A DNA stretch of 32,000 nt. Origin: an uncultured Desulfovibrionales bacterium. GTDB taxonomy: Bacteria; Desulfobacterota; Desulfovibrionia; Desulfovibrionales; Desulfonatronovibrionaceae. The notes under the pieces are model-generated. The model was not told the DNA's origin, did not search any database, and saw only the letters and a program-made list of their open reading frames with translations. The stretch is taken from the NCBI GenBank assembly GCA_964398785.1, contig CAYNNQ010000021.1, positions 265-32,264 of the forward strand, written 5' to 3'. The stretch's first letter is position 1; each line of letters starts with the position of its first letter. Positions 710 through 15,371 of this stretch are shown here, one piece after another. Position numbers and translations under genes: made by a program.

Positions 710-1909
710 ATGGTCGTAGAGAAAAGAAAAGTCCTAGTCACCGGAGCGGGGTGTATCTGCAGCGCAGGGCCGGACGTCCCCTCGTGCACAGCCGCCCTTT
801 ACTCCGGGGATTTTTCCCCACCGCTCCCCCCGAAGGATTTCATGCCCGGGTTTGAGCAGGACTTCCCGGTTTTTGCCTGCAAAAAGCATTTGCACCCTTC
901 TTACCAAGACGAAAAAAACGTGTTTGTCAGCTCCTCCTTTGCCCTGCAGGCCGCCTTGGAAGCCCTGCATAACGCCCGAATCGACCCCGGGGAACTCAGC
1001 CGAAGCCGCACCGGGATATGCATCGGAACCACGGTCGGGGCCTCGCTCAACATCCTTGATTTCTACAAGCACTGGAAAGAAGGCGGGGACCCGGATCTGG
1101 AACAGATATACCGCTACATGCGCAGCAACCCCGCCCTTTTCCTGCAAAAAAAGTTCGGACTATCCGGGCCGGTGCAGACAAGCACCAACGCCTGCTCCAG
1201 CGGAACCGACGCCATCGGTGTTGGCAGGCAATGGATTCAGCAGGGCCTGTGCGATCGGGTGATCGCCGGGGGAACGGATGAATTGAACGAACTGGCCTAT
1301 AACGGTTTCATCCGGCTCATGAACTGCAGCCTTGAGCCCTGCCGCCCGTTCGATGCCGAGCGCAAGGGCCTAAATCTGGGCGAGGGAGCGGGCATACTTG
1401 TCCTGGAAGCCGAAAAAAACGCGGAAAAACACGGAGCGGACATCCTGGGGGAGGTCGCCGCGTACTCGACCGCGGCGGACGCCCATCACCTGACCGCCCC
1501 CCACCCGGAGGCAAAAGGGCTTGAAATCGCCTTTTCCCGGGTGCTTGAACAGACCGGCATACAAACCCGGGACATCGGTGTAATCAATGTGCACGGCACG
1601 GGGACCACGGCCAACGATCAGGCCGAGGCCCATCTTCTCGCCCGCGGCCCGAAATCGGTTCCCTTTTTCGGGACCAAGGGCATGACCGGACACACCCTGG
1701 GAGCGGCCGGGGCAATGGAAGCAGTGTTCTCCCTGTATTGCCTGCGGGAAAAGAAAGTTCCCCCCACGCCCGGCTTCAACACCCCGGACCCGGAACTCGG
1801 AGTCGCCCCGGCAAAGGGAGGAACCGAGTTAAGCGGTCCCTGGGCGGTTTCCCAATCCCTGGCCTTCGGCGGGAACAATTCGGTTCTTCTCCTCAAGGGG
1901 GAGGGATAG
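710..1909 (+). CDS. beta-ketoacyl-ACP synthase (KAS I/II family), cluster KS-1
   Basis: 399 aa with ATG at 710. All three catalytic motifs are present: active-site Cys in TNACSSGTDAIG, first His in DAHHLTAP, second His in NVHGTGT. The GHTLGAAG loop and FGGNN C-terminus are also present, giving a canonical Cys-His-His KS. Confidence 0.9.
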   Translation: MVVEKRKVLVTGAGCICSAGPDVPSCTAALYSGDFSPPLPPKDFMPGFEQDFPVFACKKHLHPSYQDEKNVFVSSSFALQAALEALHNARIDPGELSRSRTGICIGTTVGASLNILDFYKHWKEGGDPDLEQIYRYMRSNPALFLQKKFGLSGPVQTSTNACSSGTDAIGVGRQWIQQGLCDRVIAGGTDELNELAYNGFIRLMNCSLEPCRPFDAERKGLNLGEGAGILVLEAEKNAEKHGADILGEVAAYSTAADAHHLTAPHPEAKGLEIAFSRVLEQTGIQTRDIGVINVHGTGTTANDQAEAHLLARGPKSVPFFGTKGMTGHTLGAAGAMEAVFSLYCLREKKVPPTPGFNTPDPELGVAPAKGGTELSGPWAVSQSLAFGGNNSVLLLKGEG

Positions 1910-1911
1910 CC

Positions 1912-2787
1912 ATGTATATACTCGGAAAAGGGATAACCGGACCCTTTGGGGGATGGCCGGAATTTAAAGATATCGTCCGGGAGGGCAGACCCCTTTTCGG
2001 GACCGAAGAAAAACACGCTGAAAACCGGGATTTGAGCCGTTTTGTCTCTACCCGGTTCAAACGCCGCCTGGATCACTTCACCAAAATGATCCTCACGGCC
2101 GCGCATCTGGCCCTGGAAGACATGCAGCAGGAAGGAGGGGAAGACCCGGGACGTTTGGGGATCATCCTTACAAGCGGCTACGGGCCCTGTCAGACCACTT
2201 TCGACTTTCTGGACGGAATGATCGATCACGGCCCGAATATGGCTTCTCCCCTGGCCTTCTCCCATTCCGTGCACAATGTCCCGGCCGGAATCCTGGCCAT
2301 GTCCCTCAAGGAGAGCTGTCCGTGCACAAGCATCTGCCAGCCGCAAATGCCGGTATTCTCCGGGCTTGTCCAGGCCGGGGCCTGGCTTGAGCAGGGAGTG
2401 GCGGATACCGTTTTGCTCGGGGCGGCGGATGAGGATACCGAACTCTTGCGCTACTGCCTGGGGCGGATACATCCAGGACTTTCACGCGAGAACACCCTGG
2501 TCCAGGAAGGAGCGGCCTTTTTTTGCCTTAAAAAAACAGCAGAACACCGGCCGCAGGCCAAATTGACTCTGGCCGCCCCCGGGGAAAAAAGTCCGGCTGA
2601 AACCCGGGAGGCGAATCTTTTGGGCATACATCCTTCCTTTCCGGTCCGGGCCGCATTTGAGATGGCCGCATTTATGGCCGGGAAAAAGGATGCAAAAATA
2701 GCTTTGGCTGAAAAAAACCTCTCCGGGGACAAGGCGTTTATATGTATGCATTCACCGAATTCTGCTGATAACCATGCAAAAATATAA
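1912..2787 (+). CDS. truncated KS-like protein (chain-length-factor-like partner of KS-1)
   Basis: I chose the internal ATG at 1912, which follows GGGGAGGGA (SD) and lies 2 nt after the KS-1 stop. The track ORF start at 1738 would overlap KS-1. The product is 291 aa and begins MYILGKGITGPFGG. It has thiolase-fold N-half features (GIILTSGYGP, LLGAADE) but lacks the HxTxP, HGTGT and GHxxGAAG motifs. It is about 100 aa shorter than the real KSs. Confidence 0.7.
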   Translation: MYILGKGITGPFGGWPEFKDIVREGRPLFGTEEKHAENRDLSRFVSTRFKRRLDHFTKMILTAAHLALEDMQQEGGEDPGRLGIILTSGYGPCQTTFDFLDGMIDHGPNMASPLAFSHSVHNVPAGILAMSLKESCPCTSICQPQMPVFSGLVQAGAWLEQGVADTVLLGAADEDTELLRYCLGRIHPGLSRENTLVQEGAAFFCLKKTAEHRPQAKLTLAAPGEKSPAETREANLLGIHPSFPVRAAFEMAAFMAGKKDAKIALAEKNLSGDKAFICMHSPNSADNHAKI

Positions 2788-3961
2788 ACTCACAAAAGAG
2801 GATATTCTTCTTATCCTCAGCGGGATGATCAAGGCCGGGCTCATCGCCCGGGGAGAATACCCGGACTTTATTTTTCGTCCCGGCCCCCTTCCCCCGGAGT
2901 CCCGGATCGGCGCGCAGGGGCTTAATCTAAGCGAGTCCGAGGCAAGCAATCTGCGCCGCCGCGCGGAAGAGATGTTCGGGGGAACTCTCCCGGAAGGGGC
3001 CGCACTGGAAGAGTGGGCGGAGGTCTTGCACGCGGCCCGGAAAAGTTCCGGGCGGGAAAAAATCGTCTTTCACACCTCGGGCAGCACCGGCGAGCCCAAA
3101 CCGAACGCGCACGACTATGCCCTGCTGGCCCAGGAGATCGACTGCCAGAAAGAACTGTACCTGGGGACCGAAAGGATCGTCAGCTTTGTTTTTCCCCAGC
3201 ACATCTACGGCTTTCTGTTCACGATCATGCTCCCCAAGGCCCTGGGGTGCCCGGCGCTTTCCCATCCACCGTTCCCGTCCCGGAAAATAATCGAGGATCT
3301 GCGGGAAAACGATCTGGTGCTCGGATTTCCCCTTTTCTGGAACAAACTTCTGGAAACCGGGAAAACCGTGCCCAGAGGCGTATCCGGAGTAACCTCCACC
3401 GCACCCTGCCCCCGGGAAACAATCCTCAGACTCATGGAAAACGGATTTGAAAAAATAACCGAGATATACGGCTCCTCGGAAACCGGGGGAATCGGCACCC
3501 GGAGTCATCCGGACAAGCCATACACCCTGCTTTCCTGCTGGAACGCCCCCGGCCCGGAAAACCCCGGGCATTTAACCCGAGAGCATCCGGCAAGCAAAAA
3601 GACCCTGTCCTATCCGGTCCCGGATGCGATCACCTGGCTTGGCCCGGACACATTCCTCCCCAGGGGCAGAACGGACAGCGCGGTACAGGTAGCCGGAACC
3701 AATGTCTATCCGAAAAAAATAGAAAACATCCTTTTAAAGCACCCCGAAATCCGGGAGTGCGCCGTCCGTCTCATGCGCCCGGAGGAAGGCTCTAGACTGA
3801 AGGTGTTTATAGTCCCGCAAGGGACGAAGGACCCGGAGGAACTGCGCCGGGAACTTGCGGCCTGGATGAAAAAACACTTGACTGCGGCGGAAATTCCCAA
3901 AAAGATAAATTCGGGATGCGAACTCCCCAAAAACGCCATGGGCAAGATTCAGGACTGGTAA
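2774..3961 (+). CDS. short ANL-superfamily adenylating enzyme (acyl/aryl-AMP ligase, probable starter-unit loader)
   Basis: 395 aa with ATG at 2774, overlapping the upstream gene by 14 nt. Motifs read: FHTSGSTGEPK (A3 P-loop), YGSSETGG (A5), GRTDSAVQVAGTNVYP (A8) and the C-terminal PKNAMGKIQ (A10 Lys). Confidence 0.85.
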   Translation: MQKYKLTKEDILLILSGMIKAGLIARGEYPDFIFRPGPLPPESRIGAQGLNLSESEASNLRRRAEEMFGGTLPEGAALEEWAEVLHAARKSSGREKIVFHTSGSTGEPKPNAHDYALLAQEIDCQKELYLGTERIVSFVFPQHIYGFLFTIMLPKALGCPALSHPPFPSRKIIEDLRENDLVLGFPLFWNKLLETGKTVPRGVSGVTSTAPCPRETILRLMENGFEKITEIYGSSETGGIGTRSHPDKPYTLLSCWNAPGPENPGHLTREHPASKKTLSYPVPDAITWLGPDTFLPRGRTDSAVQVAGTNVYPKKIENILLKHPEIRECAVRLMRPEEGSRLKVFIVPQGTKDPEELRRELAAWMKKHLTAAEIPKKINSGCELPKNAMGKIQDW

Positions 3962-3981
3962 CGAATAAAGGAAAAAAAGAC

Positions 3982-4188
3982 ATGATTGCAAACAAAAACC
4001 GCATTCTTGCAGCGGCAACCGGAGTGCTGCTTTTGCCCCTTTTTTCCTGCACCCCGGTCAAAAAGGCCGGGCACGGCGTGGGCGAGGCCACGGGCAAGAC
4101 GGTCAAGACCATAAAGGAAATACCCGGGGAGATTAAGAAAGGATATAAAAAGGGCAGGACCGAAAACCCCGCCCCTGATGGAAACTAG
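3982..4188 (+). CDS. small Lys-rich lipoprotein (hypothetical)
   Basis: I chose the internal ATG at 3982 (upstream AAAGGAAAAAAAGAC), 20 nt after the ligase stop. The 68 aa product, MIANKNRILAAATGVLLLPLFSC..., has a signal peptide plus lipobox L-F-S-C. Its small size limits confidence. Confidence 0.45.
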   Translation: MIANKNRILAAATGVLLLPLFSCTPVKKAGHGVGEATGKTVKTIKEIPGEIKKGYKKGRTENPAPDGN

Positions 4189-4189
4189 C

Positions 4190-4210
4190 AAACAGCCTAT
4201 TGGGCTGTTT
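4190..4210. terminator. hairpin between convergent lipoprotein genes (possible bidirectional terminator)
   Basis: The stem aaacagcc (4190-4197) pairs with ggctgttt (4203-4210) across the loop tattg, followed by ttct. It overlaps the stop codon of the minus-strand gene. The U-run is short, so this call is weak. Confidence 0.3.
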
Positions 4211-4604
4211 TCTGCTGCATTCTGCGCATTATTGCCTGATCCAGATAATGGATCCAGCCGTTATAGCGTCTATGGATCACGTCCCCGGAATGGCGCATAT
4301 TTCGACTGTCCTTGTACTTGATGCTGTAGCTCTTGTTGTCATAATATATATCCACCTGAGCCATGAGCTTGCCATGATCCAGTGTAGCCACCATATGCCC
4401 CGGGGATTTCTTTTCCGCATGCCACCCCTTGTCCATACATCCCTTGTAGACTGCATCCGCCACCTGCTGAGTGGTAAGTTGTTCGCCGGATTTTGTTGGA
4501 ACCGGGGCCTCGTTTATGTTGTTAATCGGGGCCTCCACAATACAGGCAGTCAAGAAAAGCACTGAAACCAAAGAAATACACCAAGCGCAAAATCTGGGAT
4601 TCAT
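4197..4604 (-). CDS. lipoprotein of unknown function, last gene of the minus-strand KS operon
   Basis: 135 aa with ATG at 4604..4602, preceded by a strong SD (AGGAGG in aaactaggaggtttatATG). The signal peptide has lipobox L-T-A-C (VLFLTAC). It lies 14 nt downstream of the PlsC-like gene. The region is visibly lower in GC than its neighbours. Confidence 0.65.
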   Translation of the reverse strand: MNPRFCAWCISLVSVLFLTACIVEAPINNINEAPVPTKSGEQLTTQQVADAVYKGCMDKGWHAEKKSPGHMVATLDHGKLMAQVDIYYDNKSYSIKYKDSRNMRHSGDVIHRRYNGWIHYLDQAIMRRMQQKTAQ

Positions 4605-4618
4605 ATAAACCTCCTAGT

Positions 4619-5380
4619 TTACGATGCCTCCAGACAGGAAAGCATCATTTTTCTGACATGTCCGGACATGGCCTTTGCCGGTCTTTTCTCCCGAGCGAAA
4701 CCCTGGGGATAAACCGGGTCAAAGAAACACATCCCTATCTGTCCGGGATAAAAGACCTTCTTTCCCGGAGGAAGCAGCCTTGCTGTACCCTTTATGCACA
4801 ACGGAACCACCGGGACATCGGTGCGCTGGGAAATCTGAAACGCGCCGGTCTTGAACCCGGCTAGCACTTCCTCTTTTCTTCGGGTCCCTTCCGGAAAAAA
4901 AAGCAGGCTTATTCCGTTGTTCAACAGTTCCCTGGCCCGGGCGAGAAACGTCTCCGGATCAAGATCCGCGTCCAAATACCCGGACATGCGCATGAACGGG
5001 GCCAGAAAAGGCACCCGGAACGGCCATCCCCGGACAACCATGGAAACGGCCCAGATCGGCTGGGCCCCGAAACAGTATATATCCAGAATGGACTGGTGGT
5101 TGGCGACAAATATATATGGCGGGGAATTCAGATTCTCCTCGCCGCTCTTGTCGAAGCCCAAAAGGGGCTTGCTGGCCAGATACCAAGCTCGGCCGTAAAG
5201 CCAGATCAAAAAAAGACCAAGCCTTACCCCTTTTTTTTCGGAAAGAAATTTACCTGCGGCCAGGACAAAGGGCATGATCGCCAGGGAAAAAAGCACCAAA
5301 ACACCCTTTACCAGGTAAAGCCAGACATTGAAGACAAGCCTTAAAAGAAGGGGGCTTTGGATTCTTCCAGCCTTGATCAT
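4619..5380 (-). CDS. PlsC-type lysophospholipid/1-acyl-glycerol-3-phosphate acyltransferase (LPLAT family)
   Basis: 253 aa with N-terminal hydrophobic helices. It carries the HX4D motif (NHQSILD) and the FPEGTR motif. Its ATG at 5380..5378 overlaps the ACP stop (ATGA at 5377-5380). Confidence 0.85.
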   Translation of the reverse strand: MIKAGRIQSPLLLRLVFNVWLYLVKGVLVLFSLAIMPFVLAAGKFLSEKKGVRLGLFLIWLYGRAWYLASKPLLGFDKSGEENLNSPPYIFVANHQSILDIYCFGAQPIWAVSMVVRGWPFRVPFLAPFMRMSGYLDADLDPETFLARARELLNNGISLLFFPEGTRRKEEVLAGFKTGAFQISQRTDVPVVPLCIKGTARLLPPGKKVFYPGQIGMCFFDPVYPQGFAREKRPAKAMSGHVRKMMLSCLEAS

Positions 5381-5655
5381 TTCCCTATACCTAATCCGTC
5401 CCGCCTGTATTGTTCATATTTTTTCAGGATGTATTCATGCAAATCGCTGACAGTCCGAATTTCCTTCAGTTCTTCTCTGTTCTTGAGTTTAAAACCGAAG
5501 GCCTGCTCCAGGGCAACCACCATATCCACATAGTCCAGGCTGTCCAGTTCCAGGTCCTCGATAAAGCTCGTCTCGGGCCGGAGTTCATCCTCTTCCAATT
5601 CAAACTCCTCGGCCAGGGAGGAATTTATTGTCTGCACTATTTCCGAACGATTCAT
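5377..5655 (-). CDS. acyl carrier protein (cluster ACP-A)
   Basis: 92 aa with the phosphopantetheine attachment motif LELDSLDYVDMVVALE. Its ATG overlaps the KS-2 stop (ATGA at 5652-5655). Confidence 0.85.
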   Translation of the reverse strand: MNRSEIVQTINSSLAEEFELEEDELRPETSFIEDLELDSLDYVDMVVALEQAFGFKLKNREELKEIRTVSDLHEYILKKYEQYRRDGLGIGK

Positions 5656-6878
5656 GGATCATATCTCCTGATCAAAAGGGCCGTATTGATACCCCCAAAG
5701 GCAAAGTTGTTTTTTAATACCGTACGCACCTCCTTTGTGCAATCCTCACATATAAGATTGACTCCAGCACAGTCCGGATCGATATTTTCCAGGTTATTGG
5801 TCCCGAGGAGTAATCCCTCCTGCATCATGCACCCCACAGCAGCGACTTCCAGAGCACCGCTGGCGGCCATAGTATGCCCCAAGTGCCCTTTTAGGCTGCT
5901 CACGGGAACGGAATCACCAAAAATCCGGGCCAGAACCGCGGCCTCGTCCGCATCCCCCTGAATGGTGGAGGTGGCGTGCGCGTTTATGTAATCTACATCC
6001 CCGGGGGCGGCTCCCGCGCTTTGCAAAGCGGACAGGATGCACTCGTGCATTGTCCGCGGATCCGGGCTGACCAGGTTCTTGGCGCAGTTCATGGACCATC
6101 CGGCGATTTCCCCCAGAATGGGGACCCCGCGCTTAAAGGCGGAGGGCAGGGACTCCAGGACCAACACCCCGCCTCCCTCGGAGCAGACAACCCCGTCCCG
6201 ATCCGCGTCAAAGGGCCGGGAGGCGCGTCCGGGATCATCCCAACTTTTGACCGAGGCCGCATCCATCATGTCAAAGGTGCCCACGGTAAGGGGATGGACC
6301 TCGTCCGCCCCGCCGCAAAGCATCACATCCTGCTTGCCCGCGGCTATGGCCTCGGCCCCGAGGGCTATGGCCTGTCCTCCGGTGGCGCAGGCAGCACCCG
6401 GGGAAATGACCCGGCCGCTTATGCCCAGATACTGGGCCACATTGGCCGCGCAGCTGTGATTCATTATCTTGAAGAAATTGGTGGAGCGGATCTGCTCCAC
6501 GCCGGTACCGTGCACAAGATACTTGCGGAAAACATCCTCCAGGACGTAGGGGCTGTTCACCGTACTGGAGATACTCGCCCCGACTCTGCCGCCGCCAAGA
6601 AAGACCTCATCCAGACCGGCCATCCCAACCGCCTCCCTGGAGGCAAGTGCGGCAAATATACCCATCCTGGACATGCTACGGCGAAAGCGCCGGGGAATAT
6701 CCTTTTCCGGCAACTCGGGCACATAAACGCCTGTATTGCTATCCAGACCGGGTATATTTTCCAGTCCCGGATTGTACTCTATCCGGGTTTCCCCCTTTTT
6801 CAATCCGGACCACATACAATCCGTACCCAAGCCGTATGCGGAAACAGCCCCGGTTCCGGTAATCACGACTCTTTGCAC
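5652..6878 (-). CDS. beta-ketoacyl-ACP synthase, cluster KS-2 (atypical: Asn at the first catalytic His position)
   Basis: 408 aa with a GTG start at 6878..6876, preceded by AGGAAGG. Motifs read: active-site Cys in PGAACATGGQAI, second His in NAHATST, Lys in SSLKGHLGH and the FGGINT C-terminus. The segment that aligns with DAYHMTSP of FabF reads CAKNLVSP. Confidence 0.85.
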   Translation of the reverse strand: MQRVVITGTGAVSAYGLGTDCMWSGLKKGETRIEYNPGLENIPGLDSNTGVYVPELPEKDIPRRFRRSMSRMGIFAALASREAVGMAGLDEVFLGGGRVGASISSTVNSPYVLEDVFRKYLVHGTGVEQIRSTNFFKIMNHSCAANVAQYLGISGRVISPGAACATGGQAIALGAEAIAAGKQDVMLCGGADEVHPLTVGTFDMMDAASVKSWDDPGRASRPFDADRDGVVCSEGGGVLVLESLPSAFKRGVPILGEIAGWSMNCAKNLVSPDPRTMHECILSALQSAGAAPGDVDYINAHATSTIQGDADEAAVLARIFGDSVPVSSLKGHLGHTMAASGALEVAAVGCMMQEGLLLGTNNLENIDPDCAGVNLICEDCTKEVRTVLKNNFAFGGINTALLIRRYDP

Positions 6879-8365
6879 TTATACCTTCCTATCTGTTCCA
6901 AGAGTTTTTCTTCGCCCACTATCATTCCACAAGCGACGATTCCAGAGATAACCGTCCCCAGGATCCCCGGAGCGATAACCCCCTGTCCGGCCAGAAAAAG
7001 TCCCTCTATCTTGGTCATGGGCAAAAGGGGGTACTGATGCACAGCGCACTTCGTCCCGTAAAGTCCGCCGCAAGGATTACTACAGTAATCGCGGAAAGTA
7101 AGCGGAGTGGATGTAGCTATCGGCTGTAACCTCCCACGAATTTCGGGTATCTCTTTGTATACTGCCTGAAGAAGCTTATCCGCCAGCCTGTTTTTAAAAT
7201 CCTTATAGTCCGCCGGTCGATTGCCGGATAATGTTTCAATCCATTTTTCAAAACTGGAAAAAGAAGAAGGGGCAATTATTATCACCCCCGTCTTTCCATC
7301 CATTTCCTCGGTCATACTCAAATGCAGGCAGCTTGGCCCATTTTCATTTTCCAGGCCCACAAAGCGGAGCCAGCCTCGTCTCCGCAGGACCAGCCAATTG
7401 GGAACATTGAATATTTCTGGTTTCCTTCCCTCCAGACGGGCATAAAGCACAAAACCGGAAACAGTCTCCTGCATGCCGGAAAACCTTTTCTGCTGTGCCG
7501 GTCGCAGCCCGCTATCTCCCAAAAGCTCCGGGAGGCGGAGCGGGCTGCCGGTATAAACACAGTTTTCGGCAGCCAAGACAAGACCATCGGCCAAACGCAC
7601 GGAGCGGATGCGTCTCGAAGCGTCCAGTCCCAATTCCGTGGCCCGGCTAGAACAAAAAATATCCACCCCGTATTTCTTGAGACTGTTATGAAAAGCCCGG
7701 ACAAGACTCCGACCGCCACCTTTGATATAGTGCACCGAACGTAGATAGGAAGCAAAGATCTGGGCATGGACCTGCATAGTAGCCTCGCTAGGTTCCACTC
7801 CGGCCAGGATCGCCGGGTAGGAAAAGACCGCCCGCAATCCGGGATCGTCTACGTTCTCCCCCAAAAAATGTCCAACGCTTATGTCCTGTTGGATATACGA
7901 TTCCAGACTGTTTTTCTTACCCCCCTTGAAGGTGAGATATGGTGAGGATGTCCAGTAATTGGCGCATTCCCGAAAAAAATGCTCGACTTCCTCCCGGCGA
8001 TGGGGATACATGCGCAAAAGATCCTGTCGGAGCCGATCCGGCCCATAGGAAACAAAAAAATCATCCCCTAAATCGGGACCGCGCAATCCCAAAAATCCAT
8101 CACTGGGGAGCTCTCCTCCCTCGAGTCCATCCTTAAGGCCCAGGAACCGAAAATAGGTATCCAGGACATGTCCCTCTCCCAGCTCCCCCACATAATGCAC
8201 GCCAGTATCGAAAAATATGCCCTGCCTCTGAAACCCACGCAGGGTTGGAGCAAGCATGGATGAGGACTCCACCAGAGCAACCCGGTGCTCCATTCTGGCC
8301 AGGGCTATTGCCGTAGTCATGCCGGCCGCTCCCCCGCCGATCACAACCGTATCATAACTGGACAT
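6863..8365 (-). CDS. FAD/NAD(P)-dependent oxidoreductase, phytoene desaturase (CrtI)/CrtISO/retinol-saturase-like family
   Basis: I chose ATG 8365..8363 (MSSYDTVVIGGGAAGMTT...RVALVE, a dinucleotide-binding GxGxxG fold right at the N-terminus). This ATG shares one base with the KS-3 stop (TGATG at 8367..8363). The track start at 8419 would overlap KS-3 by 55 nt. The product is 500 aa, and its C-terminal GLFLAGQGVIAPG is typical of the family. Its 3' end overlaps the KS-2 start by 16 nt. Confidence 0.85.
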   Translation of the reverse strand: MSSYDTVVIGGGAAGMTTAIALARMEHRVALVESSSMLAPTLRGFQRQGIFFDTGVHYVGELGEGHVLDTYFRFLGLKDGLEGGELPSDGFLGLRGPDLGDDFFVSYGPDRLRQDLLRMYPHRREEVEHFFRECANYWTSSPYLTFKGGKKNSLESYIQQDISVGHFLGENVDDPGLRAVFSYPAILAGVEPSEATMQVHAQIFASYLRSVHYIKGGGRSLVRAFHNSLKKYGVDIFCSSRATELGLDASRRIRSVRLADGLVLAAENCVYTGSPLRLPELLGDSGLRPAQQKRFSGMQETVSGFVLYARLEGRKPEIFNVPNWLVLRRRGWLRFVGLENENGPSCLHLSMTEEMDGKTGVIIIAPSSFSSFEKWIETLSGNRPADYKDFKNRLADKLLQAVYKEIPEIRGRLQPIATSTPLTFRDYCSNPCGGLYGTKCAVHQYPLLPMTKIEGLFLAGQGVIAPGILGTVISGIVACGMIVGEEKLLEQIGRYKCKES

Positions 8366-9579
8366 CAAAACCCCAAAATCAAAGAACAGTTGCTTCCTCC
8401 AAAACCGGCGGAATTGCACATAACCCTTCTCGGCTTTTCCAGCACAGTTTCCGGGACTATATTCAGCCCTTCAGCCGCAGGGTCTGGAACACTGAAATTG
8501 ATATTCGGAGCAACAAAAGCGTGTCTGGCCATCAGGCAGGAATAGACAACCTGGGAAGCACCGGCCATCCACAATTCATGCCCGGTCATGGACTTAAGGG
8601 AGGAAACCATGGGAGAGCAATCCGAAAAGACCCGGCGGATATTTTCCGCCTCTCCGGCATCCCCGGCCGGAGTAGAGGTGGCATGGGCGCAGACATAGTC
8701 AATATCACCCGGAGACAGGGCAGCATCCTCCAGGGCCTTGTCCATAGCTTGGGCCAATCCCGAAAAACTGGGGACTGAAAGATGATACCCATCCGAGGAG
8801 AAGCCATAACCTATAACCTCCCCCAGTACAGGACCGCCCCGGCGTCGGACCTCTTCCCGGTCCTCCAGTATAAGTGCTGCCGCCCCTCCGCTGGGCACCA
8901 ATCCTTCCCTGGAGGCATCAAAGGGGCGACTGGCCCTTTCCGGATTTTCTGTATCCCGGGAAAATGCCCCCAGCCCGTCAAAACTACATGTGGATTCCCA
9001 GTTTATCTCCTGTGCCCCGCCGCAGACCACTTTCTTCTGTCGTCCCAGGGCAATCAGGTCATAAGCTTGGCCCACGGCGTTGCCACCGCTAGAGCATGCG
9101 GAGCTCACGGTCCAGCAGGCCCCCATGTTTCCCAAAAGGACATTCAGATTCATGGTTACAGTGGAGTTCATGGAACGGAAAATAGCCCCGCTACCGATGG
9201 ACCCGGTTGCTCCCCTCTCTCTTAAAAGATCCACCTGTTCCGCGCATGCCCCGCAGGATGAATCCACGCCGAAGATCAGGCCGGTATCCCCATTTTGCAG
9301 ATCCTGTTCTTGCAGACCGGATTCCTGCATGGCCTCAAGGACTGCGGCATACGCCTGCACCCCGAATTCGGGCAGAGTTTTCCTCTGTTTGCGATTTAGG
9401 TACGCGGCGGGTCTGAATCCTTCAATCTTTCCCGTCAAGGGACTGAAAAAACCAAGCTTCTCCCGTTCGGAATCGATCCCGATCCCGGAAAGGCCGTGAT
9501 ACAGGGATTCGGCCACGGCCTGCTTCCCGATGCCGATGCTGGAGACGATTCCCGTCCCGGTTATTACTACCCGCTTCAT
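8365..9579 (-). CDS. beta-ketoacyl-ACP synthase, cluster KS-3
   Basis: 404 aa with ATG at 9579..9577. Motifs read: active-site Cys in SSACSSGGNAVG, first His in SSDGYHLSVP, second His in CAHATSTPAGD and the FGGSN C-terminus. This gives a Cys-His-His KS. Confidence 0.9.
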   Translation of the reverse strand: MKRVVITGTGIVSSIGIGKQAVAESLYHGLSGIGIDSEREKLGFFSPLTGKIEGFRPAAYLNRKQRKTLPEFGVQAYAAVLEAMQESGLQEQDLQNGDTGLIFGVDSSCGACAEQVDLLRERGATGSIGSGAIFRSMNSTVTMNLNVLLGNMGACWTVSSACSSGGNAVGQAYDLIALGRQKKVVCGGAQEINWESTCSFDGLGAFSRDTENPERASRPFDASREGLVPSGGAAALILEDREEVRRRGGPVLGEVIGYGFSSDGYHLSVPSFSGLAQAMDKALEDAALSPGDIDYVCAHATSTPAGDAGEAENIRRVFSDCSPMVSSLKSMTGHELWMAGASQVVYSCLMARHAFVAPNINFSVPDPAAEGLNIVPETVLEKPRRVMCNSAGFGGSNCSLILGF

Positions 9580-9791
9580 GATTCCCGCTTATTTATTGCC
9601 ATATTTATCCGAACGCGGCCTAAGCCGACGACTCGGTGTTTTATAAAAATTATGCTGAATAATTACATTGCAATTACGTTTTTACAGGTGTGTTTGCAGG
9701 ACAACATTATCAAAATACGCCCCAGTTCAAGGCTCAATGCAAGCCCAACGTCTTTTTTAGTCCTTATGCCGGGATATTGAAGGCCACAAAA

Positions 9792-10520
9792 TCAGGTATG
9801 GACTCCGCCGTTAACGGAAATTACTTCTCCTGTAATGTACCCGGCCCGCTGGGAACACAAAAACGAAACCACGCCGGCCACTTCCTCCGGTTTGCCGAAA
9901 CGCCTGAGTGGTATCCGGTTTAAAATCTCTTCTTGGGACAATTCCTCAAGCATTCCGGTATCAATAAACCCCGGCGCAACAGCATTGACCAATATATTGC
10001 GTTTGGCCACTTCCACGGCCAGAGACCGCGTGGCCCCGATAAGCCCAGACTTGGCCGCGGAATAGTTCACCTGCCCCGGCACACCGGTCTCTCCGGATGT
10101 AGAGGCTATATTGACTATCCGTCCCTCTTTGCGTCTGAGCATCTTTTCCACCACCGGCTTGGTTACATTGTAGAACCCTTCCAGATGCACCTGCAAAACA
10201 TCCTTCCAGTCCTTTTCCTTCATCCATACCAAAAGTGTATCCCGATTGAATCCGGCGTTATTCACCAACGCATACGGGATGTCTTGTTCCAGACGGGGTT
10301 GAAGGGCCTCTCGCGTTTCATCCCCGTCGGCAACATCAAACCCCATAATTTCGCATTTACGGCCCATTTCCCGAATATCTGCAGCAACTTCCTCGGCTGC
10401 GGAAAGATTACTTTTGTAATTTAGCCAAATATCGAATCCATCTGCAGCCAGCGCCCGGGCTGTAGCCGCACCAATGCCCTTGCTTGCGCCGGTTATCAAA
10501 GCTATACGTTCACTTCCCAT
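9792..10520 (-). CDS. 3-oxoacyl-ACP reductase-like short-chain dehydrogenase (FabG family)
   Basis: I chose the internal ATG 10520..10518 (MGSERIALITGASKGIGAA), because the 30-codon upstream extension in the track looks non-coding. The 242 aa product has TGxxxGIG, NNAG and YSAAKSG (YxxxK) motifs. A 212 bp gap separates it from KS-3 downstream. Confidence 0.9.
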   Translation of the reverse strand: MGSERIALITGASKGIGAATARALAADGFDIWLNYKSNLSAAEEVAADIREMGRKCEIMGFDVADGDETREALQPRLEQDIPYALVNNAGFNRDTLLVWMKEKDWKDVLQVHLEGFYNVTKPVVEKMLRRKEGRIVNIASTSGETGVPGQVNYSAAKSGLIGATRSLAVEVAKRNILVNAVAPGFIDTGMLEELSQEEILNRIPLRRFGKPEEVAGVVSFLCSQRAGYITGEVISVNGGVHT

Positions 10521-10665
10521 TTTATGCCACCCCTTGACCACAGAATTTATACAATTAAAATAGAGGGATATCTGTTTATAATTGTTTATCACTTCCACTT
10601 GTAGTGACAAAAGTTTATAATACGGATAGGGTGTTTAGTCAAAATTTCAATATGAGCAACAAGAT
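10521..10665. promoter_or_regulatory. AT-rich divergent promoter region (fabG-like gene leftward, radical SAM operon rightward)
   Basis: This 145 bp AT-rich spacer lies between divergent starts. It contains a perfect TATAAT at 10616-10621, about 45 nt upstream of ATG 10666, but I found no convincing -35 element. The call is positional only. Confidence 0.3.
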
Positions 10666-11952
10666 ATGAAACTAAAACTTATTTATCCCAGCTGGCCCAA
10701 GCTGCGGAATCAAACCAAATTTGACCTTCCCCCGCACGGTCCGGTGGTTATGGCCACCACTGTCCCTAAAGAAGTACAAATCCGGTTCACTGACGAAAAC
10801 ATTCAGGATATAGACTTTGAAGAAAAAGCGGATCTGGTGGCCATTTCCGTAATGCTCACCTGCCAACTCCCCCGGGCCTTTGAAATAGCCGCGGAATTCA
10901 GGGAAAGGGGAATACCCGTTCTTTTCGGGGGGATTTCCACCACCCTGCACAAGGAAGAAGTCAGCCGGCATGCGGACAGCATTTTTCTGGGGGAAACAGA
11001 GGGGAGATTCGCGGAGGTAATCCAGGATTTCCTAAGCAATCGCCTGAAAAAAGTATACGATTATTCCCGGCAACATCCGGACATGGCTCTTGTGGAAACC
11101 GCCCGCAGAGATATCTTGCAACGGGAACTATATAATTATCGGGGTGTACAGATGGTGGATCTGGTACATGCCTCGAGGGGGTGCCGCTTCAATTGCTTTC
11201 CCTGTTGCTCCCGCTACCTGGGCGGGAAAAAACACCGCCCCCGTCCTCTATCCAAAGTTGTTCAAGAAATGGAATCCATACCCAATAACCGCCTTTTTTT
11301 GGTAGACAACTCCCTGGCCCAGAACAAAAAATGGTTGCGGGAACTCTTTACCGCAATACAGCCTTTAAAAAAGAAATGGATATCCCACCCGGTATTTTAC
11401 GACCCGGAAATAATCAATCTGGCGGCAAAGGCCGGTTGCTGGTATGTTTATCAGGCAATTATAGACACCTCGGAAAAAACCAAAGAACGTATCAAAATGC
11501 TCAAGGACCACGGAATCGGAATTGAGGGAACCATTCTCTTGGGAACCGATGACCACGACGAATCATATATAAAAAGGCTGGTCGATTTCCTTCTGGAAAA
11601 CGAATTGGACCTGGCCGAGTTCACCATACTCACCCCTTTCCCGCATACACCGATTCGCAGGCAGTTCGAAGCCGAGGGTCGGATTCTTTCCAACGAATGG
11701 ATCAAATACACCACGGACCAGGTGGTTTTCCAGCCGGCGAAAATGACCGTGGATAAATTACAGGAGCTATACGATTATGCCTGGGATACATTTTACGGCA
11801 AGGGGGGACAACAATTGAGGATGGCTCAACTCCTGAGAAAAGTTATAGAGAAGGAAAAAACAGACGGCACCTATCGCCGCTACGATCCTCCCCAAGGGAA
11901 TGCGAACTACAGTAGCCTGGACACAGAGCAAAAAACATCAGCAATGGATTAA
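10666..11952 (+). CDS. B12-binding-domain radical SAM enzyme (class B), rSAM-1
   Basis: 428 aa. The N-terminal Rossmann-like cobalamin-binding region (LIYPSWPK...LPPHGPVVMAT...ADLVAISV...PVLFGG) is followed by the CxxxCxxC cluster motif GCRFNCFPC (nt 11182-11205). Confidence 0.9.
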   Translation: MKLKLIYPSWPKLRNQTKFDLPPHGPVVMATTVPKEVQIRFTDENIQDIDFEEKADLVAISVMLTCQLPRAFEIAAEFRERGIPVLFGGISTTLHKEEVSRHADSIFLGETEGRFAEVIQDFLSNRLKKVYDYSRQHPDMALVETARRDILQRELYNYRGVQMVDLVHASRGCRFNCFPCCSRYLGGKKHRPRPLSKVVQEMESIPNNRLFLVDNSLAQNKKWLRELFTAIQPLKKKWISHPVFYDPEIINLAAKAGCWYVYQAIIDTSEKTKERIKMLKDHGIGIEGTILLGTDDHDESYIKRLVDFLLENELDLAEFTILTPFPHTPIRRQFEAEGRILSNEWIKYTTDQVVFQPAKMTVDKLQELYDYAWDTFYGKGGQQLRMAQLLRKVIEKEKTDGTYRRYDPPQGNANYSSLDTEQKTSAMD

Positions 11953-11978
11953 ACCCAAACTCCCTGCATCCTTATTAC

Positions 11979-14321
11979 ATGGACAACAAAAGAATACTTC
12001 TGGTCCATCCATTGGGCTACGATTCTATATACGCGGGCCAGGACGTGGCCAGGCTGGCCAATCTCATGCCGCCTTTGGGTCTGGCCTCTCTGGCTTCCTA
12101 TCTGGAAAACAACGGTCTGCGCGCGGATATTTTGGACTGCTTTGCCCATCCGGACTGCCTGGACAGAATGAACAGCTATCTCCGCGAATATCGCCCCAGA
12201 TTTATCGGCCTGACCTGCACTACATCGGCGTTCCCCAACTCAGTCCAAATCATCCAGAGAGCCAAACAGATACTCCCGGAAATCAGATCCGTAGTCGGCG
12301 GAGCGCACCCTTCTGCTCTAAAAGAAGAAGCCCTTCGGGACAGCCCGGATGTGGACTATGCCGTAGTGGGCGAGGGAGAAAAGCCACTAAAGAGACTGCT
12401 CCAACGGACGGAAAAAGAAGCACACCTCATTCCTGGTATATGTTATCACGGCCATAACGGTCCGGTATTTAACGGGACGCAAACAGATCTGGTCCAACTG
12501 GACGATCTCCCTTTCCCTGCCTATGATAAATTACCCGGTTTCCCGGATACCTATACTCTGCCGGTATTCAATTATCCCCGCCGCCCAAACACCAGTTGCA
12601 TATCCAGCCGCGGATGCCCGTACAAGTGCTCCTACTGCGACCGTTCCGTGTTTGGATCCAGTTTCCGGTACAACTCCGCCGGATATCTCTATGCACATAT
12701 GCGCTATCTCCACAACCGCTGGGGGATCAGACATATAAATTTCTATGACGACCAGTTCACTTTGAATCGCGGGCGGGTAGCGGAACTATGCACCATGCTC
12801 ATGGACCATCCCTTGGGTATGACCTTTAACTGTGCGGCCAGGGCGGAACACGTGGATCCGGAGCTTTTGGAGATGATGAAAGACGCCGGATGCTGGATGA
12901 TAAGCCTGGGCATAGAAAACGGCAATCAAAAACTGCTTTCCAAGCACAGGCAAAATGCCAATCTGGATATGGTCGCCCGCACTGTAAAGGATATAAAAAA
13001 GGCCGGCATAAGAGCAAAAGGCCTATTCATGCTCGGACTGCCCGGTGAAACGGAAAAGACAATCAAAGAGACCAAAACCTATGCACATTCACTTAACCTG
13101 GACGACCTAAATCTAGCCAAGTTCACCCCCTTTCCAGGCTCCCCACTTTATAAAGACATACATATCCACGGCAAATTCGAGGAAGACTATGCCCGAATGG
13201 ACTGCATGCATTTCTTATTCATACCCCAAGGACTATCGGAACAATTCTTGGAAGACAAATTCCAGGAATTTTACAAAGAACATTTCACCCGCCCCCGCAC
13301 TCTATACAACTACTTGTCCATGCTCTGGAAATCCCCGGACAGCTGGAAGAGATTCATCCTCTCTCTGCCGGATTTCCTTAAATTCGCCCATCAGGGAAAC
13401 CGGATGAGCGCGGAGGCCTCCTCACATAAGCGCAACTGGGACAGCAAAAGTCTAGGTGGAGAATGGCAGCACCGTTTCTTTTATGCCCTAATTCGGACGT
13501 TAGGTGTTCGCCCGGCCTATGCTTTTCTTTACCCGGTCACTCTGTGGTACGTTCTTCTTCACCCCAGTGTACGCCGCAGAATCAGACCTTACCTTAAACA
13601 CCGCTTCCCGGAAAAAAAAGCCATCCCCAGACTCTTCGCCACCTACCGTTTGAGTTTGAACTTTGCCCAAATATTGGTGGATCGTGCAGCTATAGGCATT
13701 CTGGGGTCCAGCAGATTCAAAATAGATTTTCCGGAAAGAGAAAAGTTCCGGGAAATAGCGCATCAGGGTAAGGGGGCGGTATTGATCAATACCCACGCAG
13801 GCTCCTGGCAGGTAGCCATAGCCGCTTTGGAACTTTTGTCCACGCCAATATCCATGCTTATGCAAAAAGACCGGAAAGATGTGGATCGCCCATACTACAG
13901 CCACCGCCAACAAGAAAGTCCGTACAGGACCATCGATCCGAGCAAAGGGAGTGAAGCCATGCTGGAGATGTTCAACTCCCTGAAAAAAGGTGAAATACTG
14001 GGAGTCATGGGCGACCGGGCCTTTGGTAATGACAAAAACCTGGTCGATGTTGATTTTTTGGGGAAAAAGGCTTGGCTGCCATTTAGCCCGTATAAGCTGG
14101 CTTCCTCCACCGGAGCACCGTGTATGGTTCTCTTAACGCACAGAACCGGATATCTGCATTATACAGTCCGATTGGCCCGGGTGATTGATGTCCCCAGGGA
14201 CCTGGGCCGCCAGCCGGGAAATTTCCGGGAATACGCCCAAGAATATACACATACCCTGGAAGAATTTGTAAAAAAACATCCTTGGCAATTCTTCAACTTC
14301 TACGACATGTGGGAAAAATAA
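11979..14321 (+). CDS. fusion protein: B12-binding radical SAM enzyme (rSAM-2) plus C-terminal LpxL/HtrB-type (lipid A biosynthesis) acyltransferase domain
   Basis: A single uninterrupted 780 aa ORF. The N-terminal half has the B12-binding region (ILLVHP...MPPLGLASLASYL) and CxxxCxxC GCPYKCSYC (nt 12615-12638). The C-terminal ~300 aa (from about nt 13420) has a hydrophobic anchor (AYAFLYPVTLWYVLL), a catalytic-loop-like NTHAGSWQ (nt 13794-13811) and the family-typical tail HPWQFFNFYDMW. Confidence 0.9.
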   Translation: MDNKRILLVHPLGYDSIYAGQDVARLANLMPPLGLASLASYLENNGLRADILDCFAHPDCLDRMNSYLREYRPRFIGLTCTTSAFPNSVQIIQRAKQILPEIRSVVGGAHPSALKEEALRDSPDVDYAVVGEGEKPLKRLLQRTEKEAHLIPGICYHGHNGPVFNGTQTDLVQLDDLPFPAYDKLPGFPDTYTLPVFNYPRRPNTSCISSRGCPYKCSYCDRSVFGSSFRYNSAGYLYAHMRYLHNRWGIRHINFYDDQFTLNRGRVAELCTMLMDHPLGMTFNCAARAEHVDPELLEMMKDAGCWMISLGIENGNQKLLSKHRQNANLDMVARTVKDIKKAGIRAKGLFMLGLPGETEKTIKETKTYAHSLNLDDLNLAKFTPFPGSPLYKDIHIHGKFEEDYARMDCMHFLFIPQGLSEQFLEDKFQEFYKEHFTRPRTLYNYLSMLWKSPDSWKRFILSLPDFLKFAHQGNRMSAEASSHKRNWDSKSLGGEWQHRFFYALIRTLGVRPAYAFLYPVTLWYVLLHPSVRRRIRPYLKHRFPEKKAIPRLFATYRLSLNFAQILVDRAAIGILGSSRFKIDFPEREKFREIAHQGKGAVLINTHAGSWQVAIAALELLSTPISMLMQKDRKDVDRPYYSHRQQESPYRTIDPSKGSEAMLEMFNSLKKGEILGVMGDRAFGNDKNLVDVDFLGKKAWLPFSPYKLASSTGAPCMVLLTHRTGYLHYTVRLARVIDVPRDLGRQPGNFREYAQEYTHTLEEFVKKHPWQFFNFYDMWEK

Positions 14322-14346
14322 TCATGTACAAAATAGCGGGGAAAAA

Positions 14347-14601
14347 ATGGAGATCAAGACTCAGCTAAAGGAAAAATTAATCGAAGGACTCAACCTGGAA
14401 GACATCCGGCCGGAGGATATAATGGATGACCAGCCGCTTTTCGGGGAAGGACTGGGACTGGACTCCCTGGATGCAGTGGAGTTGGTAGTCATAATCCAGA
14501 AGAATTTCGGGGTGGAGATAAGCGATATGGAACAGGGGAGGCAGGCATTCGCCTCGATTAACGCCCTGGCCGAATTCATAGAAATCAACCAATCCCACTA
14601 A
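14347..14601 (+). CDS. acyl carrier protein (cluster ACP-B)
   Basis: 84 aa with ATG at 14347 preceded by GGGGAAAAA. It carries the Ppant attachment motif LGLDSLDAVELVVIIQ and lies 25 nt after the fusion gene. Confidence 0.85.
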   Translation: MEIKTQLKEKLIEGLNLEDIRPEDIMDDQPLFGEGLGLDSLDAVELVVIIQKNFGVEISDMEQGRQAFASINALAEFIEINQSH

Positions 14602-14668: not shown

Positions 14669-15319
14669 TTAATTCTGAAAGAGACTAGCTTTTATTTCCG
14701 GAGACATAAGAAGCACTTTCAATTTTTCTTTTAAGGCTTTGGGTACTACCGTAGTGGCATGAGATGGCGGATTTATGAAATTTCCACCCAAATCATCTTC
14801 GCCTTGAATACGTTTTTCGGCCAATTCCTTACCTTCTTTTGAAAAAACCTTGATCTCAAGATTATAATACAAGCCGACATTTACCATAGTATCGCTTTTC
14901 CATTGATATATAGTTAAAAGTAATAATCTATCGGCCTCTTTTTTCATAAGAATATTTTTTACTTCCAAGACGGTTTGGGAATGGTCCGTATAAACGGGCT
15001 TTGCCTCAAACCCTGTTTTTTGAAGAGCCTTACTAAGTGCATTTACTATATCAGAAGATAAAGGTCTTCCACTTTGAGTTTCAACATCAAAAGGATTGCC
15101 GTATCCCCCTCTCTGCAAGCCAATAAAATTAGGCTCCTTATCGCTATTTACAATAAATGAACGCTTATCCAGAGCAGCAACGCCAACTTCCCCTTCTGCT
15201 TTGGAATGCAAGTTAGGGTGAGCAGAATGCATGGCGTATTTATTGCCTATAGCACAAGCACTGATTGAGAACAGAAACATCGTGGCCAAAATATACTTGA
15301 TTATTTTTTTCAAATCCAT
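14669..15319 (-). CDS. lipoprotein of unknown function in an AT-rich island
   Basis: I chose ATG 15319..15317 (MDLKKIIKYILATMFLFSISAC, lipobox I-S-A-C), preceded by GTGGAGTGG. The track start at 15331 is a GTG inside that SD. The product is 216 aa. The gene is conspicuously AT-rich relative to both flanks. Confidence 0.7.
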   Translation of the reverse strand: MDLKKIIKYILATMFLFSISACAIGNKYAMHSAHPNLHSKAEGEVGVAALDKRSFIVNSDKEPNFIGLQRGGYGNPFDVETQSGRPLSSDIVNALSKALQKTGFEAKPVYTDHSQTVLEVKNILMKKEADRLLLLTIYQWKSDTMVNVGLYYNLEIKVFSKEGKELAEKRIQGEDDLGGNFINPPSHATTVVPKALKEKLKVLLMSPEIKASLFQN

Positions 15320-15371
15320 CTGCCACTCCACTTATCTATAAAACCACATAAACAAAATATTTCCAAAATAG

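Follow-up and report, generated by a model that had tools for sequence, protein, structure and literature searches.

In the aryl polyene (ape) gene clusters of Escherichia coli CFT073 and Xenorhabdus doucetiae (apeA-R), a gene for an acyltransferase of the LpxL family is directly followed by a gene for an acyl carrier protein (ACP) of the PRK09184 type. These clusters also encode a ketosynthase (KS) with its chain length factor (CLF; apeO/apeC), an AMP-ligase starter enzyme, a family 2 glycosyltransferase with a DUF2062 domain (GT2/DUF2062; ApeJ), a LolA-like protein, an MMPL protein, ApeI/ApeP-like dehydratases and a 4HBT thioesterase. In E. coli, the gene order is apeC-apeD-apeE-apeF, where apeD (c1201) encodes the lysophospholipid acyltransferase-type enzyme (LPLAT) and apeE (c1200) and apeF (c1199) encode ACPs, and the cluster is devoid of radical S-adenosylmethionine (rSAM) genes (PMC8253772). 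ApeD was proposed to transfer the ACP-bound polyene acyl chain to lyso-phosphatidylglycerol, and ApeJ to add sugar and aryl polyene (bioRxiv 10.1101/2020.12.19.423268). Here, we describe a locus in which rSAM genes are combined with genes of this kind. It occupies positions 10666-14601 of a 32,000-nucleotide (nt) stretch, hereafter called the window, from an uncultured Desulfovibrionales bacterium (Desulfonatronovibrionaceae; assembly GCA_964398785.1, contig CAYNNQ010000021.1). Its three genes encode an rSAM enzyme (rSAM-1), a second rSAM enzyme fused to an LpxL/HtrB-type (ApeD-like) acyltransferase domain (rSAM-2::LPLAT), and an aryl-polyene-type ACP (ACP-B).

A second group of relatives comprises the ladderane-like type II fatty acid synthesis clusters of Kuenenia stuttgartiensis (kuste3335-3352, and cluster I, kuste3603-3608), Desulfotalea psychrophila (DP1853/DP1855), Geobacter and Pelobacter. 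As here, they combine several FabF-like KS genes with additional ACPs, B12-type rSAM enzymes and a flavoenzyme resembling phytoene desaturase. Synteny among Kuenenia, Desulfotalea and Geobacter was reported early on (Rattray et al., 2009; PMC2649909), and genome-mining tools label this kind of cluster "ladderane" in many phyla other than those of anammox bacteria (PMC9902471). In the literature, we found no characterised product for ape-like clusters containing rSAM genes, and a 2026 review indicates that virtually nothing is known of the family's chemistry.

The locus is a genus-specific variant of this catalogued cluster family, with two genes fused, the cluster split over two loci and the ACP gene detached from its KS/CLF genes; the kind of system itself is not new. 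On balance, we consider it probable, though well short of secure, that the three genes form one operon representing a condensed remnant of an envelope-lipid cluster that resembles aryl polyene clusters ("ladderane-like") and is widespread in anaerobes. Like ape clusters, the window has a PRK09184-type ACP gene beside an LPLAT gene (25 nt apart here), a KS1/CLF pair, a ketoreductase (KR) gene and an AMP-ligase gene. The GT2-DUF2062, LolA, MMPL and 4HBT genes, together with ApeI/ApeP-like genes scoring just below cut-off, are found elsewhere in the genome, on contig C17. Unlike this locus, ape clusters lack rSAM genes, a CrtI-like flavoenzyme and a PlsC arm, and in them the LPLAT is not fused to an rSAM enzyme nor the ACP set apart from its KS/CLF. 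Among ladderane-like clusters, only this genus has the fusion and the division between two loci. In rhizobia, the AcpXL-LpxXL system likewise pairs a private ACP, which donates a special acyl chain, with an LpxL-family acyltransferase encoded next to it, and has KS genes of its own; unlike the present system, it has another chain chemistry, lipid A as acceptor and no rSAM enzymes.

The operon and its fusion gene

The three open reading frames lie on the forward strand at 10666-11952 (rSAM-1, 428 residues), 11979-14321 (fusion, 780 residues) and 14347-14601 (ACP-B, 84 residues), separated by 26 and 25 nt and divergent from a KR/KS operon. The coordinates given in the preliminary description, a note made from the sequence alone, are exact. 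Because the gaps are short, no terminator-like site was found by a scan of the forward strand between the three genes or after ACP-B, and the fusion-to-ACP junction is 0 nt in a relative (L001), the genes almost certainly form one operon, as that description had held. The start codon of rSAM-2 agrees with the N-termini of its orthologues, and the ATG of ACP-B has a purine-rich GGGGA upstream.

Relatives were compared in a synteny map built by tblastn on 80 species-representative loci. They reveal a conserved block with the order ApeP-like, LolA, MMPL, ApeI-like, 4HBT, KS, CLF, rSAM1, rSAMx, rSAM2, (GT2/DUF2062), LPLAT, ACP-B, KS1, CLF, PagL, found in Desulfuromonadales, Geobacteraceae, Pirellulales, Rokubacteria, Lentisphaerae, Desulfatiglandales and Aminicenantes. 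The rSAMx family corresponds to NCBIfam TIGR04072 ("rSAM_ladder_B12", lipid biosynthesis B12-binding/radical SAM protein), with 686.5 bits in L002 for a cut-off of 360. In several lineages, a second arm (KR, KS, CrtI-like, KS, ACP-A, PlsC), resembling ladderane cluster I, is attached to the block; the KR/KS arm adjoins rSAM-2 or the Ape-like genes in L024, L004, L062, L030 and L067.

The 780-residue protein matches B12-binding (92.6 bits), Radical_SAM (86.7 bits) and Lip_A_acyltrans (66.3 bits) of Pfam in one reading frame. Its rSAM-2 domain spans 11979-13418 and its acyltransferase domain 13449-14321. An uninterrupted rSAM2-LPLAT frame was found only in the window and in L001, L006 and L007, which belong to metagenome-assembled genomes (MAGs) of Desulfovibrionales/Desulfonatronovibrionaceae; among the rSAM-2 matches listed in a library search, one is a fused relative (71% identity). 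A sequencing error as the origin of the fused frame was considered and ruled out, the frame being present in these three further assemblies (71% identity). Three of the four sampled members of the window's genus have the fused form, which is confined to that genus, and a true rSAM2 orthologue occurs in about 10 of the 151 genomes sampled from the order. In eight Geobacter-type loci, the two genes are adjacent yet separate. The gene directly 3' of rSAM2 is most commonly GT2/DUF2062 (35 of the 80 loci, with gaps of a few to tens of nt), and LPLAT in 10. The simplest history suggested by these arrangements is that an intervening GT2 gene was lost or relocated and that the rSAM2 and LPLAT genes then fused.

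The acyltransferase domain belongs to family PF03279 (66.3 bits for a cut-off of 22.3, residues 494-778). It does not reach the NCBIfam LpxL equivalogs, the best being NF006270 with 48.1 bits for a cut-off of 248, which argues against orthology with lipid A lauroyl/myristoyl transferases. Identity to the standalone LPLAT genes of related clusters, in the position of ApeD, is 40-51%. LpxL-type enzymes are expected to have an H-x4-D/E motif. In the present family the motif is H-x-G-x-W-Q, with a conserved His; the fifth position is Gln in 16 of the 17 aligned sequences and Glu in one, from Brocadiia. The 17 sequences also share an MGDR block and a C-terminal HPxQFFNFxDMW block.

The rSAM-2 domain has homologues in Desulfuromonadales, Geobacteraceae, Planctomycetota (including Brocadiia), Verrucomicrobiota and Elusimicrobia. 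Thousands of them are standalone proteins of about 480 residues with around 60% identity. The three cysteines of the CxxxCxxC motif (GCPYKCSYC; C213, C217, C220) are invariant in 14 homologues. In an AlphaFold model of the whole fusion, the domains fold (mean predicted local distance difference test, pLDDT, 77), and the linker, residues 447-492, is below 50. Just before this linker, the tail of rSAM-2 (residues about 448-459, near 13320-13355) carries an invariant M-x-W-x-SPDSW-x-RF motif, where model confidence is low.

The fusion says that rSAM-2 and the acyltransferase act on the same intermediate or complex, and it does not indicate on which part of it. One possible explanation, which we entertain only tentatively, is that rSAM-2 leaves the acyl chain alone and, like HpnJ or AprD4, remodels a sugar head group installed by GT2/DUF2062, the fusion to LPLAT then reflecting shared work on one membrane glycolipid. 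HpnI, HpnK and HpnJ, the enzymes of the hopanoid cyclitol-ether side chain, form an established route of glycosylation, deacetylation and radical ring contraction on a lipid head group (PMC13459092), and the best similarities of rSAM-2 point in this direction: its highest NCBIfam score is on HpnJ (TIGR03471; 197.3 bits) and its best sequence match in the PDB is the sugar diol-dehydratase AprD4 (86.7 bits). Besides the frequent GT2/DUF2062 neighbour, sister clades of rSAM-2 in a library of 1.8 billion proteins (32-37% identity) are fused to GT1/GT4, GT2, YdjC/HpnK-like deacetylase or DegT-type sugar aminotransferase domains. The fused sister-clade proteins are P0153, P0172, P0184, P0202, P0162, P0243 and P0168, and the fused domains stand at either the C- or the N-terminus. 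In another lineage, GT2 is fused to LPLAT (P0246); hence the rSAM2/GT2/LPLAT trio has been fused in at least two different ways.

However, the HpnJ score is far from the cut-off of 577.6, and other models come nearly as high: BchE (TIGR02026) with 169.7 bits for a cut-off of 481.35, and the P-methylase and C-methylase models with 140-150 bits. On TIGR04072, rSAM-2 reaches 104.4 bits, for a cut-off of 360. Moreover, the sister clades also hold fusions to SAM methyltransferases, in Desulfobulbales-type loci a KS gene precedes rSAM-2 and GT2 is absent from the vicinity, and the GT2 gene of this genome is on another contig, beside the TIGR04072 gene. Unlike in the Hpn systems, there are no hopanoid genes here and the partner in this genus is an acyltransferase, not a glycosyltransferase. 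Because all scores are far below the family cut-offs, a head-group role for rSAM-2 is a serious rival and not a conclusion. Still, the comparative evidence on rSAM-2 seems to favour the stage of lipid assembly or of the head group no less than chain chemistry.

ACP-B and its partners

ACP-B matches the PP-binding family with 42.2 bits and NF006617 with 78.7 bits (cut-off 70), and has a DSL serine motif. By whole-genome tblastn, it is the only ACP of its type in the genome, the other match being the housekeeping acpP gene on contig C8. The preliminary description saw in its place, directly after the two rSAM genes, the mark of a private carrier on which the radical chemistry is done. The synteny map does not bear this out. 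Among 44 ACP-B orthologues (at least 55% identity), KS1 lies directly 3' in 41, that is in 41 of the 42 evaluable loci, two loci ending at a contig edge; the sole real exception, L007, has the arrangement of the window. On the 5' side, the neighbour is LPLAT in 36 of the 44 loci and rSAM2 directly in only four. When LPLAT or rSAM2 is elsewhere (L003, L031, L079, L085), the ACP gene is still with KS1-CLF.

Since KS1-CLF follows and LPLAT precedes ACP-B with these frequencies, ACP-B appears to belong to an ACP-KS1-CLF triad that was split in the window's genus, and would not be a private ACP of the rSAM enzymes. The best interpretation is that it serves an ape-type system as carrier for elongation and as donor of the acyl chain, and that a rearrangement left it behind the rSAM genes. 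Its position would then provide no evidence for rSAM action on acyl-ACP, a chemistry that could nevertheless take place.

Indeed, ACP-B might be a dedicated carrier presenting the chain, growing or finished, to rSAM-1 and rSAM-2, with both radical reactions occurring on acyl-ACP before transfer to the lipid. The three genes are tightly linked, and rSAM-2 is fused to a domain of a family that uses acyl-ACP, so that acyl-ACP-B must dock on this polypeptide. Carrier-tethered substrates have precedents among rSAM enzymes: CysS was crystallised with pantetheinylated substrates (PDB titles), and Jaw5 is treated in PMC13459092. In addition, rSAM1 and rSAMx lie between KS/CLF genes in most relatives. 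Against this explanation, the place of ACP-B is fully explained by descent, as the gene tracks KS1-CLF and LPLAT and not the rSAM genes. The LPLAT-ACP order also exists in the rSAM-free ape clusters, ACP and rSAM-2 are in separate operons in Phycisphaerales, Pirellulales and Brocadiia-type loci, and no rSAM-ACP fusion was found among the best 120 and the best 150 database relatives. We regard on-ACP action of both enzymes as unlikely, without dismissing it.

rSAM-1 and the second locus

Both rSAM enzymes have the class-B architecture claimed for them, with a CxxxCxxC motif and a Rossmann-type B12-binding domain (PF02310), the latter marginal in rSAM-1; either enzyme may bind cobalamin. In rSAM-1 (10666-11952), B12-binding scores 33.0 bits for a cut-off of 32.1, and Radical_SAM 22.5 for a cut-off of 29.5. 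The protein reaches none of the NCBIfam models, with 39.4 bits on TIGR04072 (cut-off 360), 35.2 on HpnJ (577.6) and 48.1 on BchE (481.35). It belongs to a conserved unnamed family. These NCBIfam scores serve as a proxy for a tree in placing the two enzymes relative to known class-B enzymes. The AlphaFold model of rSAM-1 (pLDDT 85.8) shows a Rossmann domain and a radical-SAM barrel and, among PDB structures, is most similar to AprD4 (TM-score 0.73), then to MgmA, TsrM and CysS.

The weak Pfam scores raised the possibility that rSAM-1 is a degenerate pseudo-enzyme. This was rejected: the cluster cysteines (GCRFNCFPC; C173, C177, C180) are invariant in 22 orthologues and mean column identity is 77% across phyla, which argue for a working enzyme. 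Identity to the Desulfuromonas orthologue is 68%.

The preliminary description called the two enzymes diverged paralogues, probably with distinct jobs. They are indeed different enough for that, with 24% identity over 226 residues, but the term paralogues is inaccurate. Each is an orthologue of its own family, conserved at 54-90% identity across phyla, so that rSAM-1 and rSAM-2 are members of two of three old conserved families and not recent paralogues. The picture of two rSAM enzymes was also incomplete, since a member of the third family on contig C17 had been overlooked. In 40 of 45 loci, rSAM1 is directly followed by rSAMx, and in the window's lineage by rSAM2.

This third member belongs to the second half of the system, located outside the window in the same genome (C17, positions 818-8572, minus strand; locus L086). 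The order there is SPASM-type rSAM, ApeP-like, LolA, a 998-residue MMPL protein, ApeI-like, 4HBT, a gap, a TIGR04072 fragment and GT2/DUF2062; a MazE/MazF pair (185-753) adjoins the GT2/DUF2062 end. The fragment corresponds to the C-terminal 139 residues and scores 192 bits. The genome thus probably has three B12-type rSAM enzymes split over two loci. The ladderane-like clusters share the TIGR04072 member, which is here on C17; neither rSAM enzyme of the window is one. A family search retrieved no true BchE-family member in this genome or in 14 control genomes.

It is improbable, in our view, that the rSAM enzymes are cobalamin-dependent C-methylases decorating a finished chain on a membrane lipid, by analogy with HpnP/HpnR acting on hopanoids. 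Most characterised class-B enzymes are methylases (PMC13459092; PMC12931638), rSAM-2 gives the scores quoted above on the methylase models, and the cluster has no ApeB-type SAM methyltransferase such as that of ape clusters. However, no methylase family cut-off is approached, and AprD4, the closest structure to rSAM-1, has a B12-binding domain yet binds no cobalamin (PMC12931638), the B12-domain match of rSAM-1 being itself marginal. That the enzymes build ladderane (cyclobutane) or other rings out of a polyene, a route hypothesised for anammox bacteria, is hardly credible: the cluster is homologous to the Kuenenia clusters proposed for ladderane synthesis, a Brocadiia MAG has a 57%-identical rSAM-2 and TIGR04072 is present in the genome, but no bacteria other than anammox bacteria are known to make ladderanes, none were obtained from the syntenic Desulfotalea cluster (PMC2649909), and carriers of the cluster family belong to many phyla besides those of anammox bacteria.

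Around the operon, the window carries on its forward strand (710-3961) KS1, its CLF-like partner (1912-2787) and a short AMP-ligase (2774-3961), identified by Pfam ketoacyl-synt, Ketoacyl-synt_2 and AMP-binding. On the reverse strand (4197-10520), Pfam and NCBIfam matches delineate KR, KS3, a CrtI-like flavoenzyme, KS2, ACP-A, a PlsC-type acyltransferase and a 135-residue protein. The longest KR frame (9792-10610, reverse strand) begins with a TTG 30 codons upstream of a Met near 10520. This Met is probably the true start, matching the 242-244-residue KR genes of relatives, and leaves an AT-rich divergent spacer of about 145 nt (10521-10665) before rSAM-1. Read by consensus matches only, the spacer has promoter-like hexamers, with sigma-70-like sites on the forward strand at 10534-10561 and 10555-10582. 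The window has no aromatic ammonia-lyase gene, and one is present in a Desulfuromonas relative.

Downstream, a gene for a 220-residue protein (14669-15331, reverse strand) is convergent with ACP-B and has no Pfam match. It looks like an insertion in the window's lineage because it is absent from the closest relative, L001, where a gene for an RNA recognition motif (RRM) protein directly follows the ACP gene. A tblastn match with 42% identity to the 220-residue protein lies near the cluster of Geomonas propionica (L050).

Proposed roles and significance

The condensed-remnant reading can be worded as a mechanism, in which all substrates and reactions are proposals built on the observed gene structure, orthology, synteny, fusion distribution and second locus. 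The ancestral core would have been rSAM1 - rSAMx (TIGR04072) - rSAM2 - GT2/DUF2062 - LPLAT - ACP - KS - CLF. ACP-B would be a carrier of the ApeE/F type, on which the AMP-ligase loads a starter that KS1/CLF extend. The LpxL-type domain would take the finished acyl chain from ACP-B to a lyso-lipid acceptor, as proposed for ApeD. The place of ACP-B after the rSAM genes would be inherited from the LPLAT-ACP adjacency, the gene having become the last one only through the removal of KS1-CLF to another site in this genus and the loss of the GT2 gene in between, with fusion of rSAM-2 and LPLAT.

In the same scheme, rSAM-1 and rSAM-2 would belong to a set of three oxygen-independent tailoring enzymes that are not paralogues, the third of which is encoded on C17 with GT2, LolA, MMPL, the ApeI/ApeP-like dehydratases and the thioesterase. 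rSAM-1 and the TIGR04072 enzyme may tailor the chain, possibly while it is bound to the ACP, which is plausible for these two because of their usual place between KS/CLF genes. rSAM-2 may work during lipid assembly at the surface of the membrane, its target being either the chain in transfer or a glycosylated head group.

Several observations weigh against the condensed-remnant reading. The 26-nt spacer preceding the rSAM-2 ATG (11953-11978) has no recognisable Shine-Dalgarno sequence. On C17, the ApeI-like and ApeP-like proteins are both below their Pfam cut-offs (23.7 bits for 28.5, and 25.6 for 27), and a 100-N scaffold gap (2479-2578) interrupts the locus, so that the TIGR04072 gene, like a second KS/CLF pair, may or may not be complete. 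The model of the fusion has a predicted TM-score (pTM) of 0.55, which gives no reliable mutual orientation of the two domains and their active sites. We also compared the co-variation of distance matrices for six cluster proteins in 25 loci (mirror-tree), although the loci are too closely related and the ACP too short for the result to count for much: ACP-B shows no preferred partner, KS1 included (residual r 0.04-0.14). The only notable residual in this exploratory analysis links rSAMx (TIGR04072) with rSAM2 (r 0.66). Finally, the substrate assignments rest on analogy to ape clusters, which themselves have no rSAM genes.

The cluster family, with its three conserved B12-type rSAM enzymes, occurs in hundreds of species of anaerobes. 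For this family, the present analysis corrects an appealing but unsound inference, as ACP adjacency does not mean on-ACP radical chemistry. It also offers experimental handles: the genus-specific rSAM::acyltransferase fusion, the pairing of ACP-B with KS1-CLF, and the evidence placing rSAM-2 at the lipid-assembly (GT/LPLAT) end. It is conceivable, though we hold it rather doubtful, that the fusion couples radical modification with transfer of the ACP-B-borne chain on one membrane-bound polypeptide, or else that rSAM-2 is an HpnJ-like remodeller of a glycolipid head group. If either were true, the fusion would be the first experimentally tractable entry to the chemistry of the orphan ladderane-like clusters, and at least one of the three rSAM enzymes would be a lipid-assembly enzyme and not a chain cyclase.

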